Positions 12,749 through 22,350 of a DNA stretch of 22,350 nucleotides are shown here, one piece after another. Where the stretch lies: the UHGV virus genome UHGV-0185671; one strand, written 5' to 3'. Below the pieces are notes generated by a model. The model was not told where the DNA came from. It saw only the letters and a list, made by a program, of their open reading frames with translations, and searched no databases. Each line of letters begins with the position of its first letter. Position 1 is the first letter of the stretch. This stretch comes from a virus. Position numbers and translations under genes: made by a program.

Positions 12749-13000
12749 CTATTTCCCTAGCACATGAAACAATGTTTGCTTTAATTCCACCCATACAATT
12801 ATGACCACTATAGACAGACAAAAGAAACTGAATGCATTGGCATCACGATCGAAACCTTCTCCGGCACTAAATCCGTAAAAGGTCATAAAAAATATAAAAA
12901 TTGCGCACTTTGCAACGTTTATAAATTTTTTCTTCACGCCAACCTCCTTAGTTTTGTGCAGGATACCAGATGATTTGGAGTGAGATAAAGGTTTGTCCAC
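12749..13000 (-). CDS. Hypothetical small membrane protein, 83 aa
   Basis: Minus-strand ORF with two hydrophobic stretches (AIFIFFMTFYGF; FFCLSIVVIIVWV); AT-rich; convergent with gene 16 and downstream of the PIN gene. Could be a third member of the leftward accessory operon or a sieA-like remnant; weakly supported. Confidence 0.35.
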   Translation of the reverse strand: MDKPLSHSKSSGILHKTKEVGVKKKFINVAKCAIFIFFMTFYGFSAGEGFDRDANAFSFFCLSIVVIIVWVELKQTLFHVLGK

Positions 13001-13064
13001 TTTTGGCTATAGCTTTATGTATCCGTGACGGATGTAATTATCACGGATGCATAAAAATTATATT

Positions 13065-13613
13065 TTAGTGTAATCTCTGATCGTCTGAATCTTGTAAGAA
13101 CTCCATGAGACTTTGAACCGGAATTGGTTCTATTGATGATAATGTGAACACAGGAATATTGAGACTTTTGCAACGCTCAAACACTCCCTTATCATGAGTC
13201 CATACCTCGTCAGCATTAATTGCTCTTGCAATTGCTATTATTTGTCTGTCAAACTTAATTTTGTTTGCTGTACCTTCTGTGCTAATTTTCCTTAATTCTT
13301 TTAATGTTGGTATCGATGCGCATTCAATAGCAGCCAACTCATCAAATGATACAGTCTCGAAGCATGATAACGATTTGATAACATTCAGTTTTTCTTGTTG
13401 GTAATCTTTATGGATTCCAACTAAAAACTCCGCCAATACAGGAGTTGGAACGATGATTGTCCCGTTCTTGTTATCTATCCGATCAACAAGAGCTTCTGCT
13501 CTTCTTTTGGCATCTGGAATCTCAGAACCAAGTATAGGGTCAGATAATCTATAATCGTGTTCTATATCTGATAGTAGGTATACCAGAATATTGGTATCTA
13601 AAATTACTCGCAA
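13065..13613 (-). CDS. PIN-domain nuclease (VapC-like toxin/effector), 182 aa
   Basis: N-terminal MRVILDTNILVYLL beta-strand with Asp6, then Glu62 (VLAEF), Asp122 (FDRQIIAIARA) and Asp141 (WTHDKG), the canonical four-acidic PIN arrangement. TTG start at 13611-13613 with a GAGGA RBS 7 nt upstream; start overlaps the stop of the upstream gene by 10 nt. Confidence 0.75.
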   Translation of the reverse strand: MRVILDTNILVYLLSDIEHDYRLSDPILGSEIPDAKRRAEALVDRIDNKNGTIIVPTPVLAEFLVGIHKDYQQEKLNVIKSLSCFETVSFDELAAIECASIPTLKELRKISTEGTANKIKFDRQIIAIARAINADEVWTHDKGVFERCKSLNIPVFTLSSIEPIPVQSLMEFLQDSDDQRLH

Positions 13614-14323
13614 TTTATCTTCCTCAGAGTCCTAAGGATTGAATCAACATCGCGTTCCTCGGACCACTGATCTCCAGGAACTTGCTTGATAGCATTAATA
13701 GCATCCTTGAGTGATGATTTTTTGAGCAATGCAAATGAAGTTATTTTTAGTTTCTTTAGCTCCCATTTGTTGTTCTTTTTTTCCCAGCACCCATCTCCTT
13801 TAACCCTAATATATTTGAATAGATGGGACCCAAGAGCTGCTGCCAAATCAGGGGTTGCCTCGCACTTGAATGTTTCACCGTTGACTCCCTCAATACGCAC
13901 AGGTATTGAGTTGTCTTTTCCGCCAACACTGTATAGCCTTCCTTGAACTTCTGACGTTTTTGTTATGAGTAAAGGGATTGGCTCCTTTTTTACTCGCGGG
14001 AATGCGATAATGGTTGAGTGGTTTCGTCCGAGTAGTTTCGCTGAAAAACCATCATGTTCCAGTAAATTAACAATTTTTTGATACGCAGGTGATTTCTCTT
14101 TGGCTGAGAGAGAGGCCCTTGCTATGACAGCGTTATAACAAATATCATTATCGACCCATGCATTTAAGTCAGCCGATCCTTCACTTACACAGTCGAAGTG
14201 AACAGAATCTGCAGAACCGTATAGATCTACGAGAGCAGACATATACTTGACCAACTTAGCCATTGACAGCTGGCTAGGGGTGGTTCCGTCAAGTTTTAAT
14301 GTGAGTCCATTGCTTTTTTTCAT
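13604..14323 (-). CDS. Uncharacterised protein partnered with PIN nuclease (candidate sensor/antitoxin), 239 aa
   Basis: ATG at 14321-14323 (minus); long uninterrupted ORF; stop overlaps the PIN start, suggesting translational coupling; no recognisable DNA-binding or catalytic motif by eye; AT-rich relative to flanking virion genes. Confidence 0.65.
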   Translation of the reverse strand: MKKSNGLTLKLDGTTPSQLSMAKLVKYMSALVDLYGSADSVHFDCVSEGSADLNAWVDNDICYNAVIARASLSAKEKSPAYQKIVNLLEHDGFSAKLLGRNHSTIIAFPRVKKEPIPLLITKTSEVQGRLYSVGGKDNSIPVRIEGVNGETFKCEATPDLAAALGSHLFKYIRVKGDGCWEKKNNKWELKKLKITSFALLKKSSLKDAINAIKQVPGDQWSEERDVDSILRTLRKINCE

Positions 14324-15159: not shown

Positions 15160-16062
15160 ATGAATAGTATAGCAATTTTAGAAGCAGTGAACACCTCTTA
15201 CGTACCATTCAACGGTCATCAAATTATCACCGCCATGGCTGCCGGAATTGCATATGTTGCGATGAAGCCAATCGTTGAAAACCTTGGAATGAGCTGGTCA
15301 ACGCAGCAAACAAAACTCATGAAGCAGATTAGCAAATTCAACTGTGTTCATATGAACATGGTTGCCGCTGATGGGAAGCTTCGTAAGCTACTCTGCCTTC
15401 CTTTGAAGAAGTTAAATGGATGGCTGTTCAGCATCAACCCTGAGAAAGTTCGTGCTGACATCCGCGATAAACTGATTCAGTACCAGGAAGAATGCTTTAC
15501 TGTGCTGCATGACTACTGGACAAAGGGAGAGGCAGCAAATGCACGTAAGAAAACATCTGTTGATGACAGGACTCCGCTTCGTGATGCTGTAAATATGTTA
15601 GTCAGCAAAAAGCATCTAATGTACCCAGAAGCTTATGCAATGATTCATCAGCATTTCAATGTGGAAAGTATTGAAGAGCTTGATGCATCTCAGATACCGC
15701 TAGCCGTAGAGTACATCCACAGGGTAGTGCTTGAAGGTGAGTTCATTGGCAAACAAGAGAAGAAAGCAAACGAGCTTTCTGCAAAAGAAGCAAACAGCCT
15801 TGTATGGTTATGGGATTATGCCAACCGTTCACAGGCATTATTCCGCGAACTGTATCCGGCGCTAAAACAAATTCAATCGAACTATTCCGGCAGATGCTAC
15901 GACTACGGTCATGAGTTCTCGTATGTTATCGGAATGGCGAGAGACGTTTTAATCAATCACACACGAGATGTTGATATCAATGAGCCAGACGGACCAACGA
16001 ATCTTTCCGCATGGATGAGACTGAAGAATAAAGAATTACCTCCTTCAGTACATAACTACTGA
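15160..16062 (+). CDS. ant: Antirepressor Ant, 300 aa
   Basis: Translation from ATG 15160 ([29 protein letters not shown]...) matches P22 Ant N-terminus as recalled; GGAG RBS upstream; the ORF-track TTG start at 15130 is rejected. Confidence 0.88.
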
Positions 16063-16081
16063 CAGATAACCAACGCAACGA

Positions 16082-16104
16082 CCCAGCTTCGGCTGGGTTT
16101 TTTT
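16082..16104 (+). terminator. Intrinsic terminator downstream of ant
   Basis: CCCAGC-TTCG-GCTGGG stem-loop (16082-16097) followed by TTTTTTT (16098-16104). Confidence 0.75.
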
Positions 16105-16162
16105 ATGCCCAAAATTCACCGTAGCCATGCTGCGGCGATTCCTTGTATCTGGAGCAAATTAA

Positions 16163-18301
16163 ATGACAGACATTACAGCCAATGTTGTAGTGAGCATGCC
16201 TTCGCAACTCTTCACTATGGCGCGTTCTTTTAAAGCCGTAGCTAATGGCAAAATTTATATCGGTAAAATTGACACTGACCCGGTAAATCCTGATAACCAG
16301 ATTCAGGTCTATGTTGAGAACGAAGATGGCTCTCACGTTCCTGTTGCACAGCCAATCGTCATCAATGCCGCAGGGTATCCAGTATATAACGGACAGATTG
16401 CCAAGTTCGTAACTGTGCAAGGCCATTCTATGGCTGTTTATGATGCGTATGGTACGCAGCAGTTCTATTTTCCGAATGTGCTGAAGTATGACCCTGATCA
16501 GCTACGGCAGCAATTAGAAGACCCGGATGGAGCTAAAAAATATCCTGAATTGCAGATATCTCGGTGGAGGGACGATTGTGATGTAAGAGGGTGGGGGGCA
16601 AAAGGCGATGGTATAACAGATGATACATCTGCATTGATCCTGGCTGCAGAATATGCACGAGAATCATCCAGAACATTACGAGCGGAAGGTAATTTTATTA
16701 TTACGGAGACATTAAATCTTCGTAATGTCAGCCTCGAAATGACCAATGCTGTTTTTACCATATCCCACTCAGGAATAGGAGTATTGCTTGGCGGGAATGC
16801 ATCAAACCCTAACAACCCAAAGCAAAACTTCGGAGCGATTATCAGAAATTCTGGCATTTCATCTGAAACGACACCGGATATTCGTATTATCGGGGCAAAA
16901 GGGCAGCATATTAACATTGAGCGTTGCGACTACTTACAGTTATATGCAAATTATAATGCTTCGGTGGCATCGACGGATTATTCAATAGCATACTCAACCT
17001 TTAACCTGAAAAAGGTCGATACAATTCATTTTCTTGGCGTTGAGAACGGATGGATAAATGAAAATTATTTTTATCTGAATCGTACGAATAATATCATTTT
17101 CGCTGATAATCCATATCATCATAACCACAATAAGTTTTATGGTGGAACTATGGAGGGGGAAGGTAAAATTGACATTCAAAGAGGTGATAACAATCACTTC
17201 TATGGGTTTCGTTTTGAACGATATCCATCATCCCCAACTAACCAACAGTTGATAATTAACTTTGGTGAATATACGTGGAATAACTCAATTGAAGCTACAT
17301 GGCTTTCATCTCCTGCGTATACAAATGAGCCATACAATCCATCACCTTACACTTATGTCGAGGTAACTGATAATGGCAAGGGGAATGCAGTATTTCATAT
17401 TCAGGAAAATATATCCGATGAAGTAACATTGTTTTCTTTAAATGCTAACACCCCATTTATATCTAGTGCTAACAATGGAGAGGTTGGTGCATTAGCATAT
17501 CAAACGGATGTTGATGGTTTATATAATATCCGTCACCTGGTTTCTTCTAAGTTTGCTTTTATGAGGAATTTTGGGCTCTTATGGGAATCTGGAGATATAC
17601 CTGTAAGAAATGGTGATATGTTTACATTCTCAGCAGATGCGGCATCGTTTCGTATTTACCTATATGCATTAGATAGAGATGGGAATGTCATAACCTCACA
17701 AACAGAAGCCATAACTTCTTCTATGCAATGGGATTCTGCCAACCATAGGTATGCCACTGCTGTTAATATTTCTTCAATTAAGATCAGGATTAATAATGAA
17801 GGAGTTCCAGTTAGTGCAGTTCGTTTAGCTGTGTATTCTGGTGGTAATGTAGTGAATACTGCATTTTCATGGCTATGCTTAACTGGGAGATATTACAAAA
17901 ATAGCACATCCTTGCCAAGGAAAAGTAAAAATACTTTTACTTTAAAACAAGGGAAAGCAATTACTTATTATAGTGATACTGATATTAGTATGGCTAACAT
18001 TGGTTCAGGAATTACCTGTTATAAAACCGATTTATCTGAACTCAAAATTAATCTTGTAAGGGGCAGGTATGTAGTGAAATCGATTTCAGGTAGTGAAATA
18101 TATGTATACCAAGGAACAATCACTTATTACCCTCCATTCAGTGATATCAAATTGGTATATACGGATGGGATTGAAAATAAATTATTAGATGTGCAAAGCA
18201 TCTCTTCAGGAAAGATTACTCTTGCAGATACAGTACCATCAGCTATATCTGCAGGCGATTTTGTAGATGTTATTGTTACAAAGACGAAATCTATTTTATG
18301 A
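16163..18301 (+). CDS. Tailspike protein (P22 gp9-like head-binding N-domain fused to a divergent beta-helix receptor-binding/depolymerase domain), 712 aa
   Basis: N-terminal about 115 aa ([17 protein letters not shown]...VLKYDPDQ) matches the conserved P22-family tailspike head-binding domain; downstream [11 protein letters not shown] motif is typical of right-handed beta-helix (pectate-lyase-like) depolymerases; the 3' two-thirds is AT-rich. Confidence 0.88.
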
Positions 18302-18335
18302 TGTGTTTATTTATCCTTATGTTAAAGGAGTGATA

Positions 18336-18623
18336 ATGGATATAACACCCTTCCTTCATGCGCTTTGTGCTGTTGTCGCACAGATACTGGTTGGTCTTTT
18401 TACCGGAAACTGGGTTTACGGAGCGATAGCCGGCTGTACGTTCTTCATTGCGCGTGAACACACCCAGGCAGAATATCGCTGGATTGAAATGTTCGGACAT
18501 GGCAAGCGGATTAACATGCCGTGGTGGGGCGGTTTTGACCCACGCGCGTGGGATGTAGCAAGTCTGATGGATTTTTCTGTGCCGGTGGTGGCGTGTCTGC
18601 TGGTCTGGCTGTTGAGCCGTTAA
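18336..18623 (+). CDS. Hypothetical small membrane protein, 95 aa
   Basis: ATG 18336 preceded by AAGGAG; two hydrophobic segments (LCAVVAQILVGLFTG...; VPVVACLLVWLL); lies immediately after tailspike where P22 carries gtr O-antigen conversion genes. Confidence 0.55.
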   Translation: MDITPFLHALCAVVAQILVGLFTGNWVYGAIAGCTFFIAREHTQAEYRWIEMFGHGKRINMPWWGGFDPRAWDVASLMDFSVPVVACLLVWLLSR

Positions 18624-19082
18624 ACATAAGAATCCGCAGTGTCTTGCCATGACAAGTTACAGCGGATGGCTGGTGAACTATCGATAGTGCGAGTATTGAA
18701 TGATTTCCAGCCGTTACTGATTGTACGCATTTTTGTATGAGAGGATTTGCACCACCTCGCATTGACCATCCATGACTGTACGCCACTATCTCTAGGACTG
18801 CTATGTGACAGCAGCAGACAATGCTGACATCCCTGTGCACCAATCAACACGGAGCAAGCCAGTCAGTTTATGAACGGAGTGAGTTGTCAAAAGTTGTTGC
18901 CTGCTTCCATTGGCATCGGAAATTTTTGAGTGTGCACACTCTAAGCTACTGTTGCTTCATAAGGTTGTATTGATATTACTGATACATTAGGTTATGTTTG
19001 AGAGACAACATTAAGGATTATTTTTACTTTTTGTTTACGACAAATATTATATAATTTTATTAATAACTCTATTTAGTAAGGT

Positions 19083-19859
19083 ATGGTTATGAAATTGTAT
19101 TCTGAAAGCTCAGATGAAAAAGATGCATTATATCTGCTTTCTTATATCAATGATGTTATTTTGCCTGCTTCAGTCGATTTTTTTGAAAAACTAGAAGATA
19201 ATTCCTTGAGATTGCATCACGTTTTTTCATTTAATGCAATTCTTGCTCATGCGACAGATTATATAGTTTATATCGTTAACAAAAAAAACAGCATAAAAAG
19301 GATTGATTTCCTGAAAGGTTTTGATGAAAGATACTCTGTAGATGGTTGTTGTTTTATTAATAATAAATTTGAACTTTTAGATGCTGTGAATAATTCCTTT
19401 AAGCATGTTGAGTTAAAAAAGGAACGATATCCTGAACTGATAAAAAGATATGGCGATCTATCATTCCATTGCTTGAAAGAAGATTCTGGAAAAGTTTTTT
19501 TTAGAACGTCTGGATATCAATTTGATTATTCTAGAGTGGTTCTAAGACCAATTGCTAAAATATTCGATTGTGGACTCAAAGATAATAATGATGTTGATGA
19601 TTTTATAAACGGAAGAATATTTGGGAGTTGTGGTTATGGACATTTTCTATATGACTATGAACCATATGATTCAATTGATAGAATGATAGACTACTGTAAC
19701 GCACAATGTATGGATTGTGGTGAGTATGCGGATGACTGCGATTGTCATAATTATGAATACAATAAAGAAAAAGGCAAATATAATCCTGACTTAGATCCTA
19801 ACTTCGATTTTGATGATGTTATGTCAAATATTAGTGGCACAAGGGAATGGAGTAAGTAA
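19083..19859 (+). CDS. Hypothetical Asp/Cys-rich protein, 258 aa (AT-rich cargo)
   Basis: Long ORF in a very AT-rich block with an AT-rich upstream region; C-terminus has clustered Cys/His/Asp (CGYGHF...CNAQCMDCGEYADDCDCH), suggesting metal binding; no family recognised. Confidence 0.55.
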   Translation: MVMKLYSESSDEKDALYLLSYINDVILPASVDFFEKLEDNSLRLHHVFSFNAILAHATDYIVYIVNKKNSIKRIDFLKGFDERYSVDGCCFINNKFELLDAVNNSFKHVELKKERYPELIKRYGDLSFHCLKEDSGKVFFRTSGYQFDYSRVVLRPIAKIFDCGLKDNNDVDDFINGRIFGSCGYGHFLYDYEPYDSIDRMIDYCNAQCMDCGEYADDCDCHNYEYNKEKGKYNPDLDPNFDFDDVMSNISGTREWSK

Positions 19860-20369
19860 TATTTTTTCTAAAAGGTACATTGATTGATGGAATGATTAGG
19901 CTTTTATTCTAGAGCGATTTAATGGCATCTTTGAGCAGGTGATAGGCGGTACAAAATGATTGATGAACCATTACCGGACGATTGAAGAAACATTTAAGCA
20001 GGTGCTCAAAGAAGTATTCGAGACGTTGGTGTGAAGGCTGATGTTGATGTTAATTTAAAACTCCCCACGGTTCTATTAAAGTAGATAATACTTGCTATTG
20101 ATGTAAGGAGTGTAGGTGCCCGCTATTCGCTCACATCGGATCTTTAGTGGCACATAGCTGTCTGCTATTTGCTAGGAGCGTACGCTGTTATTTTCGTTGT
20201 CCATGTCCGATAACGCAAAATTTTATTTAGTAGATTCACGGGGGGGGTGGCGGGTACTTTCATGACTGGTTGGGGAGTAAATGTAAATTAGAGGGCTGAT
20301 ATAAAACAGTCCGGAATGTAGGGGTATCATCCTACCAATCGAATCAGAACTACTAAGGAAAATAAGGCA

Positions 20370-21188
20370 ATGACTAAACATATTATGCACCCCGACCATG
20401 TCGCTGAGATTTGCAGCCAAATCAAAAAATCAAACAACAGAGATTTTATCTATGATAGCTTTCGCCAATTGCTAAGCCAGTTGCCGATGGGATTTCATGA
20501 TGTAACCGCCACGACTGTATGGCGATCGAGGAAAACTGATGTGGCCCACCAGGAAGGGTTCGATCATGTTACCGATATTATTTATCCACCTGCGCAGTAT
20601 GCCAAAACCGGAAGGCTAAATACGGATGGGGTGTCTATTTTATACGCATCTATCAGCAATCATGGATGCCTGGCAGAAATAGGAGCCCAGCCGGGGGATA
20701 AAGTGCATGTGTCCGCATTCACCCTGAAACCAGAGCAGAGACTGCATTGCGGCTTTTTTGGCGATATTGTTAGGGCACATAAATGGAGTAGCGAAGATTT
20801 TACACAGGTACAAAAAATCCTTGAGCCGTATACGGAAGCGCAAAAAACCAGTATTTTCATGATAGACAGTTTCCTTGCTGAAACACTTGCTGATAGCCGA
20901 GCGAAGGAAAACCATTACCTGCATACCACAACACTTGCTGATGTCATCCGCAATGGGAAAAATGCGTTGGATGCTATCGTTTATCCTGGAGTGGAGTCCT
21001 CCGGCGCCAAGAACTATGCAATCCACTGCGACGCAATGATTAAATTCAATATTGCAGATATGTACCTGCTAGAGATAACCAAAAAGCATCCCTACGGGCT
21101 GTATGAATGGCGGATACTTAAGCAATTAGAAAGCTATGATGATGGCCGAATTATCTGGAAAGAGCCATGCTGTGCGAATGTTGCATGA
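20370..21188 (+). CDS. Probable RES-domain protein (toxin-like NAD-targeting family), 272 aa
   Basis: Motif GRLNTDGVSILYASISNHGCLAEI (Arg82 ... Glu103) resembles the conserved Arg/Glu core of RES domains, with a later Ser-containing segment (YPGVESSG); recognised by eye only. Confidence 0.5.
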   Translation: MTKHIMHPDHVAEICSQIKKSNNRDFIYDSFRQLLSQLPMGFHDVTATTVWRSRKTDVAHQEGFDHVTDIIYPPAQYAKTGRLNTDGVSILYASISNHGCLAEIGAQPGDKVHVSAFTLKPEQRLHCGFFGDIVRAHKWSSEDFTQVQKILEPYTEAQKTSIFMIDSFLAETLADSRAKENHYLHTTTLADVIRNGKNALDAIVYPGVESSGAKNYAIHCDAMIKFNIADMYLLEITKKHPYGLYEWRILKQLESYDDGRIIWKEPCCANVA

Positions 21189-21387
21189 TGTGTTGCTGCG
21201 CGAGGAAAGGTATATGATATTTCTTTTGAGTGCTGTCAGCAGCACTCAATAACTGCGCATAATTGTAGATCCTGTAGAGTGAACTCAGTCCGGATTGTTC
21301 TATCTGAGCAATCGTTAAACCACTTGGTAAGGCTGGTTCCCGCTTCTCGCTCATAACAGACATTCACTTCAGTTATGGCAGAAAGGT

Positions 21388-21624
21388 ATGCGTGCTTGGT
21401 GTGGGGAAGCAGTGAAAGAAAAAGAAGACTGCTGCGCCATTTGTCGTCACTGCTATCTTCTTATTGCTTATGAAGGTCGTAGTGAGGCACACAAAGCTTT
21501 GCGAATTACAAGGCCTTGTGCTTCTCTGGAGTGCGACAGGTTTGATGACAAAAAATTAGCGCAAGAAGACAAAAATCACCTTGCGCTAATGCTCTGTTAC
21601 AGGTCACTAATACCATCTAAGTAG
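21388..21624 (+). CDS. Small hypothetical ORF in lambda b-region-like sequence adjacent to attP arm, 78 aa
   Basis: ORF only; Cys-rich; the surrounding DNA appears to me to be lambda-derived sequence flanking attP. Coding status uncertain. Confidence 0.25.
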   Translation: MRAWCGEAVKEKEDCCAICRHCYLLIAYEGRSEAHKALRITRPCASLECDRFDDKKLAQEDKNHLALMLCYRSLIPSK

Positions 21625-21750
21625 TTGATTCATAGTGACTGCATATGTTGTGTTTTACAGTATTATGTAGTCTGTTTTTTATGCAAAATCTAATTTAATA
21701 TATTGATATTTATATCATTTTACGTTTCTCGTTCAGCTTTTTTATACTAA
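21600..21750. mobile_element. Prophage right attachment site attR: lambda-type attP P-arm plus 15-bp core GCTTTTTTATACTAA (21736-21750) joined to host B-prime sequence
   Basis: Core sequence and upstream arm (arm-type Int sites GGTCACTAAT about 21601-21610 and inverted ATAGTGACTG about 21632-21641, AT-rich spacer) match the lambda attP P arm as recalled; after the core the sequence continues as CTTGAGCGAAACGGG, the E. coli attB right side. Confidence 0.85.
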
Positions 21751-21840
21751 CTTGAGCGAAACGGGAAGGTAAAAAGACAAAAAGTTGTTTTTAATACCTT
21801 TAAGTGATACCAGATGGCATAGCGCCATCTGGCAGAGTGA

Positions 21841-22317
21841 TTAACTAAACATCGCAGTAATCGAGGCGCTTGCCAGAGAATGGAAATGGACGTTAAACCC
21901 GACCATCGCGCCGCTGGCACCTTCATCGACATCAATACGTTCTACATCCAGCGCGTGAACGGTAAAAATGTAGCGATGGGTTTCGCCTTTCGGCGGCGCT
22001 GCACCATCGTACCCGGTTTTACCAAAGTCGGTACGCGTCTGCAAAACGCCGTCTGGCATTGCTACCAGACCAGAGCCAAACCCTTGCGGTAATACGCGGG
22101 TATCAGCGGGTAAGTTAACAACTACCCAGTGCCACCAGCCGGAACCGGTTGGCGCATCCGGGTCGTAACAGGTGACAACAAAACTTTTCGTTCCCGCAGG
22201 AACATCATCCCACGCCAGATGCGGTGAAATATTATCGCCATCGTAACCCATGCCGTTAAAGACATGACGATGTGGCAACTTATCGCCATCGCGCAGATCG
22301 TTACTGATGAGTTTCAT
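21841..22317 (-). CDS. ybhB: Host PEBP-family (UPF0098) protein YbhB, 158 aa
   Basis: Translation MKLISNDLRDGDKLPHRHVFNGMGYDGDNISPHLAWDDVPAGTKSFVVTCYDPDAPTGSGWWHW... matches E. coli YbhB as recalled; gene lies beside attB-lambda in the gal-bio interval. Confidence 0.85.
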   Translation of the reverse strand: MKLISNDLRDGDKLPHRHVFNGMGYDGDNISPHLAWDDVPAGTKSFVVTCYDPDAPTGSGWWHWVVVNLPADTRVLPQGFGSGLVAMPDGVLQTRTDFGKTGYDGAAPPKGETHRYIFTVHALDVERIDVDEGASGAMVGFNVHFHSLASASITAMFS

Positions 22318-22350
22318 GGACCCTCCTTTCTTGTTTGCAGAAAGTGTAGC

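Follow-up and report, generated by a model that had tools for sequence, protein, structure and literature searches.

The virus genome UHGV-0185671, a 22,350-nucleotide stretch of DNA (hereafter the window), covers the right-hand half of a P22-like podovirus prophage and carries, next to its right attachment site (attR), a stand-alone gene for a 272-amino-acid (aa) protein with a RES domain. We are highly confident that this protein is a RES-fold enzyme, and by sequence its closest characterised relatives are the aRES proteins, a group of stand-alone antiphage RES proteins (Osterman et al., bioRxiv, January 2026, 10.64898/2026.01.28.702374). Stand-alone RES defence is therefore already known; what appears to be new is a distinct architectural variant, which belongs to a large family outside the published definition. 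By analogy with the characterised enzymes, we consider it somewhat probable, for this reading as a whole, that the gene specifies a prophage-borne, phage-triggered nicotinamide adenine dinucleotide (NAD+) phosphorylase that would act by abortive infection.

The original prediction had called the protein a probable RES-domain protein from two motifs, GRLNTDGVSILYAS and CLAE, both of which are present, at aa 81-94 and aa 100-103, respectively. The Pfam profile that it had named, PF08808, matches aa 50-219 with E=1.2e-8; its score there, 35.5 bits, exceeds the gathering cut-off of 23.2, and the same profile matches 121 of the 127 family members that we aligned. A confident AlphaFold model has all five solved RES toxins as its best matches, and the modelled protein adopts the RES fold, which resembles that of ADP-ribosyltransferases (ART-like). 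This link to the solved toxins came through fold comparison only: hidden Markov model (HMM) searches of the PDB with profiles built from 16, 37 and 127 sequences recovered no RES toxin, and the matches to EngB (weak) and xylanase in these searches were dismissed as chance.

The active-site set of the window protein comprises R52, R54, R82, Y92, E103 and N215, with G207 at the position of the motif serine. In the alignment of the 127 family members, R82 (in GRLN), Y92, E103 and G131 are invariant, R52, N215 and R54 are kept in 126, 123 and 122 sequences, respectively, and D166, Y183 and Y205 in 90-99%. The serine of the R-E-S signature is absent from the window protein, which has Gly207 (YPGVES) where the family consensus reads YPS. 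Position 207 is Ser in 110 of the 127 sequences and Gly in 14, and YPGVES is conserved in two clades that are 30-36% identical to each other. Apart from the motif Ser, the protein thus qualifies for the RES domain family, a clade of the ADP-ribosyltransferase superfamily. Its catalytic set maps to R27, R47, Y58 and E69 of the toxin MbcT, and R82-Y92-E103 repeats the order and spacing of R47-Y58-E69. In MbcT, the essential residues are R27, R47 and Y58; E69 makes a contribution, and toxicity does not require S126, the serine (PMC6436930).

Before 2024, no RES protein had been tied to immunity (PMC11535050). The aRES proteins are harmless until infection, upon which NAD+ is depleted and growth is arrested; their output is ADP-ribose-1''-phosphate (ADPR-1P), which the phage NARP1 NAD+-repair pathway cannot use, and the phage counters to them are aRad1 and NARP1-AP (10.64898/2026.01.28.702374). 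Using the aRES sequence of E. coli UC5 from Table S4 of Osterman et al., hhalign aligned aa 45-210 of the window protein with aRES aa 175-337, helical insertion included, at a probability of 97.1% and E=5e-11. The aRES mutants R182A, R184A, R215A, Y225A, E236A and S334A were made in the same study, and mutation of the five residues that are matched in the window protein abolished defence (10.64898/2026.01.28.702374). In the alignment, R182, R184, R215, Y225 and E236 of aRES are R52, R54, R82, Y92 and E103 of the window protein, so that five of the six mutated residues are kept, whereas S334 is replaced by Gly207. In addition, both kinds of gene lack a partner in an operon and occur in defence islands and on mobile elements.

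The two differ in architecture. The operational definition of aRES is a length of 300-600 aa with a RES domain and PF18870, the HEPN/RES N-terminal domain 1 (10.64898/2026.01.28.702374), whereas the window protein, with 272 aa, lies below this range, and most family members have 265-330 aa. The N-terminal part of aRES, of about 174 residues, has no counterpart in the window protein, in which 44 residues precede the core, compared with the 131 positions of the PF18870 model. PF18870 gave no match in the window protein at E<=1 and matched none of the 127 family members at E<=0.01, in searches less sensitive than the hhsearch of the authors of the definition; the sole PF18870-bearing protein found, P0041 (PF18870 + RES), was the weakest match of the profile search. 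The window protein is therefore outside aRES as defined and belongs to a homologous, shorter stand-alone sister family of it. A 415-aa 'RES family NAD+ phosphorylase' is encoded beside repA on a conjugative plasmid of Pantoea ananatis (NZ_CP022431.1, 8929..10176; L038). It is 27% identical to aa 29-221 of the window protein and is probably an aRES-type protein with a long N-terminus.

These relationships bear on the chemistry that the window protein is likely to perform. It might instead be a ParT-like protein ADP-ribosyltransferase, which would modify a host protein (e.g. Prs) or a phage protein without depleting NAD+, and a role in exclusion or defence would still be possible. We regard this as unlikely, since the nearest sequence relatives of known chemistry are the aRES proteins, ADPR-1P makers that deplete NAD+, and since the catalytic residues common to MbcT and aRES are all kept save the Ser.

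Compared with the short RES toxins of toxin-antitoxin modules, the window protein has three extra elements, an N-terminal hairpin, a helical insertion and a C-terminal module, all of which are kept across the family. The N-terminal helix-loop-helix, which the short toxins lack, may be placed like the N-terminal 'Flap' that has been described in NatT (PMC11535050). The helical insertion, of roughly 60 residues, holds the near-invariant D166 and Y183 and lengthens the spacing from the E motif to the S motif to 104 residues, compared with 57 in MbcT. The C-terminal module holds the near-invariant G243, Y245 and W263, and the family matches reach about aa 263-265. The window protein thus differs from the RES-Xre toxins, namely MbcT (Rv1989c), P. 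putida RES, ParT, VPA0770 and NatT, in its length (272 aa versus about 145-250 aa), in having the helical insertion as well as a beta module at the C terminus, in the Gly at the motif Ser, and in a sequence similarity that is below HMM detection against the PDB. It also differs in having no antitoxin gene of the Xre, MbcA, ParS or NatR type.

The missing antitoxin had already been pointed out in the original prediction, together with a 510-bp gap upstream of the gene. The nearest upstream gene ends at 19859, which leaves a gap of exactly 510 bp, and no open reading frame (ORF) of at least 60 aa lies wholly inside it. Six-frame Pfam scans of this gap, where the original prediction had advised looking for a degenerate antitoxin, and of the 3' flank found no helix-turn-helix (HTH), Xre or DUF2384 domain. 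An Rfam search detected no RNA family in the RES locus, searches of the locus for tandem and dispersed repeats detected no ToxI-like repeats, and no neighbour recurred in about 14 genomic contexts. The RES gene is very probably a genuinely partner-less one, and the window locus is not a RES-Xre toxin-antitoxin system.

The DNA that travels with the gene is short. Only 20285..21246 of the window is homologous to the closest loci, namely an 85-bp leader, the gene and, 3' of it, 58 bp with a hairpin; a copy in Citrobacter sp. OP27, 90% identical, shows longer homology (20186..21361). On the 3' side, the homology extends to 21246 in two loci (L007 and L040) and to 21361 in another (L015). Among the invariant alignment columns of the leader is TATCATCCT, which includes a -10-like TATCAT (20325..20330); a Shine-Dalgarno sequence, TAAGG, stands directly 5' of the ATG. 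For the leader, a promoter function is only something that we infer, because a simple sigma-70 scan called no promoter in 20285..20369; a sigma-54 or strong sigma-70 promoter was rejected there as being without support from the promoter scan. The 3' hairpin was not called in a terminator scan. A 13-nt imperfect direct repeat, CAGTCCGGAATGT at 20307..20319 and CAGTCCGGATTGT at 21286..21298, brackets the RES gene with a spacing of 979 bp; it is poorly kept in L015 and is probably due to chance.

A conserved unit of this kind might conceal a toxin-antitoxin module with an unrecognised antitoxin, either a small RNA or micro-peptide in the 85-bp leader or the 3' hairpin region, or an antisense product, and its role would then be to stabilise the prophage or an integrative and conjugative element (ICE) by addiction, not to defend against phages. 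In favour of this, each of the five RES proteins with a solved structure is the toxin of a two-gene module, the conserved leader and 3' hairpin accompany the RES gene, and many homologues have an antisense open frame. However, the conserved flanks are too short for a protein of the Xre/DUF2384 type, and the searches described above revealed no Pfam antitoxin or HTH match in the gap or the 3' flank, whichever frame was read, no Rfam family and no ToxI-like repeats. The antisense frame is not conserved, being interrupted or absent in L008, L009, L010 and L012. In addition, the stand-alone aRES proteins are non-toxic by themselves, as is NatT (PMC11535050). Taken together, we consider a hidden antitoxin rather improbable.

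The family to which the gene belongs is large. In a collection of 5.8 billion proteins, the close family is small and forms 17 clusters at 62-91% identity, with Photorhabdus, Salmonella, Citrobacter, Klebsiella, Xenorhabdus and metagenomes as sources. An exhaustive run of a profile HMM against 1.84 billion cluster representatives retrieved 938 relatives at E<=1e-3, and 269 of them also pass E<=1e-10. With few exceptions these proteins have 265-330 aa, and the matches span almost the full length. A collection scan with the 37-sequence alignment, using a single peptide pattern, gave six genome loci and two viral loci. Across about 14 independent loci, the neighbours of the RES gene differ each time; integrases, genes for ICE transfer, the hyc operon and defence genes are among them.

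Defence genes directly adjoin the RES homologue in about five of these independent contexts, and the others are a prophage, ICEs and integrase islands. The adjoining genes are Mokosh MkoA (2178 bits) and an NsnA/GmrSD-like gene in L009, AbiGi and AbiEi/AbiEii in L010, Upx (2412 bits) in L007 and L040, an OLD/Gabija-like ATPase in L015 and, by Pfam annotation, an OLD-like TOPRIM ATPase in L024. A relative with 27% identity (L035) is found in the P2-like phage P88_4B11 (LR595891.1, 24164..24990), where it occupies an accessory region flanked by the tail gene D and the integrase gene. This relative is annotated as two coding sequences, of 81 and 192 aa, and may be frameshifted or mis-annotated.

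A sister clade with 30-36% identity and 265-289 aa (clade 2; L021-L027, from Klebsiella variicola, Salmonella and metagenomes) always occupies one ICE cargo slot, with a divergent PF12835 Integrase_1 gene about 1 kb upstream and DUF3742-like and TraG_N genes on the other side. The Salmonella copy of clade 1 (L001) likewise follows an Integrase_1 gene, and this arrangement suggests that the family spread from the ICE lineage of the sister clade. The gene of 76-86 aa downstream of the clade-2 copies was considered as a partner and rejected: it encodes a weakly DUF3742-like membrane protein and, as it also stands beside a second TraG_N gene in L024, it is part of the ICE backbone.

The RES gene of the window, compared with its four closest homologues, has a ratio of nonsynonymous to synonymous substitution rates (dN/dS) of 0.15-0.19 and is therefore maintained by selection, and the reading frame is unbroken in every homologue compared. 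These findings bear on whether the gene is a decaying orphan, that is, the remnant of a RES-Xre pair from which the antitoxin has disappeared, with no present function because the gene is silenced or, through the change of Ser to Gly, its product is catalytically dead. Such decay would agree with the absent antitoxin, the Gly at the motif Ser, the lack of a detected consensus promoter and the absence of the gene from 5,426 complete E. coli genomes. It is highly improbable nonetheless, given the clear purifying selection and intact frames, the invariant or near-invariant state of the other catalytic residues in 127 sequences, the conservation of YPGVES itself in the two clades, the solitary arrangement in about 14 contexts, and the uniform length of the 938 cluster representatives.

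The upstream gene, which the original prediction had called unrelated, is indeed so. This gene, ORF258 (19083..19859, +), has no homologue at any other RES locus, and its own homologues are solitary elsewhere, e.g. as the terminal gene of P4-like satellites; its G+C content is 27-32%, compared with 44-46% in the RES gene. We therefore rejected it as a partner, and ORF258 is an unrelated, separately acquired gene. PADLOC and PHROGs have no model for ORF258 or for the RES protein. A two-gene system, in which ORF258 would be for example a HEPN-like sensor or effector acting with RES, is highly improbable. In its favour, the window and L028 both have the two genes side by side in the same orientation, the fold of ORF258 is weakly HEPN-like, and PF18870 is defined as an N-terminal domain common to HEPN and RES proteins, but L028, the only other case of co-occurrence, is the same prophage (98.6% identical), and a non-conserved 510-bp spacer separates the genes in addition to the differences in G+C content and distribution. 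A placing of the ORF258 homologue in the published P4 defence hotspot was rejected, because the paper sets this hotspot between psu and int.

The RES fold, the absent antitoxin and the defence neighbours support the original suggestion that this could be an orphan, toxin-like defence gene, the function of which we infer as follows. The RES protein would be made in the lysogen in an inactive form, in which its three additional elements (the helical hairpin at the N terminus, the insertion of helices and the beta module at the C terminus) might keep it. Self-held inactivity is feasible for RES enzymes, since NatT has the Flap and both NatT and aRES are harmless by themselves. Another infecting phage would switch the protein on, whereupon NAD+ would be phosphorolysed to give nicotinamide as well as ADP-ribose-1''-phosphate, as by MbcT, NatT and aRES. 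With its NAD+ gone, the cell would most probably be killed or stop growing and the infection would be aborted, and the gain would be the protection of the lysogen population and the resident prophage. Beyond this, we propose, tentatively and with less than even confidence, that the proteins of about 270 aa constitute a minimal stand-alone RES NAD+ phosphorylase family, a single-gene antiphage or superinfection-exclusion system without the N-terminal domain of aRES, in which sensing and autoinhibition would reside in the RES insertions and the Ser would be dispensable.

The proposed logic, a single protein that destroys NAD+ upon infection and arrests growth, is the same as that of the SIR2 proteins DSR1/DSR2 and of the TIR and SEFIR effectors, single-protein abortive-infection defences that deplete NAD+. 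The catalytic fold is unrelated, that of the window protein being the ART-like RES fold, and the product expected by analogy is ADPR-1''-phosphate, not ADPR. The window protein is also far smaller and has no large sensor domain.

The prophage setting is well defined. The portal gene, injectosome genes, Mnt/Arc and Ant are present in the window, the tailspike carries the P22 head-binding domain, and the prophage is integrated at the lambda attB of E. coli. Beyond the RES gene lie, in order, a lambda P-arm-like stretch (21340..21755, 93-94% identity) 5' of the attachment (att) core, the lambda att core GCTTTTTTATACTAA itself at 21736..21750 and, 3' of the core, ybhB, 98.8% identical to E. coli; the earlier description of the gene as cargo adjoining attR is therefore accurate. 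For the ybhB flank (21760..22350), 5,417 complete E. coli records match at 95-99% identity and none at >=99%. As no complete E. coli genome exceeds 98.8% in this flank, the host may be a less-sampled Escherichia lineage.

The IMG/VR contig UViG_3300045988_151600 is 100% identical to 15370..21840 of the window. A megablast search of 5,426 complete E. coli genomes and of 50,697 phage records gave no match to the cargo segment 18800..21340, which comprises ORF258, the gap and the RES gene, and near-identical copies of it were found only in the metagenome contig L028 (98.6%) and the IMG/VR provirus L039 (100%). The RES unit by itself had no match in the 5,426 complete E. coli genomes, sensitive blastn included, and only distant relatives of it were present in the collections of phages and plasmids. 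E. coli has therefore acquired it rarely. Its source is probably the ICE or island pool of the Enterobacterales. In P22, the moron position at attR is that of the O-antigen conversion genes, and the window is a concrete case of a P22-like prophage with a RES gene at this position.

Further genes were noted in the window. Three cargo genes lie on the minus strand between the injection genes and mnt, where P22 has sieA. They include a gene for a PIN-domain protein and could be a PIN toxin or defence pair; PADLOC gave no match for them. A hydrophobic protein encoded directly after the tailspike gene had no match in PADLOC or Pfam. The coordinates of all features are listed in Table 1.

Table 1 Features of the RES locus and further genes in the window.
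Feature	Position	Strand	Basis or remark
Stand-alone RES-domain gene, 272 aa	20370..21188	+	ATG to TGA
Conserved 5' leader moving with the gene	20285..20369	+	blastn homology to L007, L008 and L009 begins at 20285-20289
N-terminal helix-loop-helix, aa 8-35	20391..20474	+	Model secondary structure; family matches start at about aa 8-12
RES catalytic core, aa 45-219	20502..21026	+	Pfam aa 50-219; alignment conservation; hhalign to aRES 175-337
Helical insertion, aa 132-195, between the E and S motifs	20763..20954	+	Model helices 132-194; conservation; hhalign
C-terminal beta-hairpin module, aa 226-264	21045..21161	+	Model strands 226-240, 244-257 and 260-264
Conserved 3' tail	21189..21247	+	Hairpin 21228..21247, 8-bp stem and 4-nt loop, no U-tract
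82-aa protein, phrog_21338	within 12749..14323	-	Cargo gene
181-aa PIN-domain protein	within 12749..14323	-	PF01850, E=4e-10
238-aa protein, phrog_19868	within 12749..14323	-	10-nt overlap with the PIN gene
118-aa hydrophobic protein, phrog_1443	18267..18623	+	Directly after the tailspike gene, 35-nt overlap with its end

If the window protein is active, RES-based immunity reaches past its published definition, and searches that require 300-600 aa and PF18870 would miss about 900 clusters. An active protein would also mean that the N-terminal domain is not needed for the silence of RES enzymes or for sensing, and would offer a 272-aa model for their activation. Should the reading of a minimal family be true as well, no smaller immune protein that depletes NAD+ would be known, and it would make a tractable model of how RES enzymes are silenced without an antitoxin.
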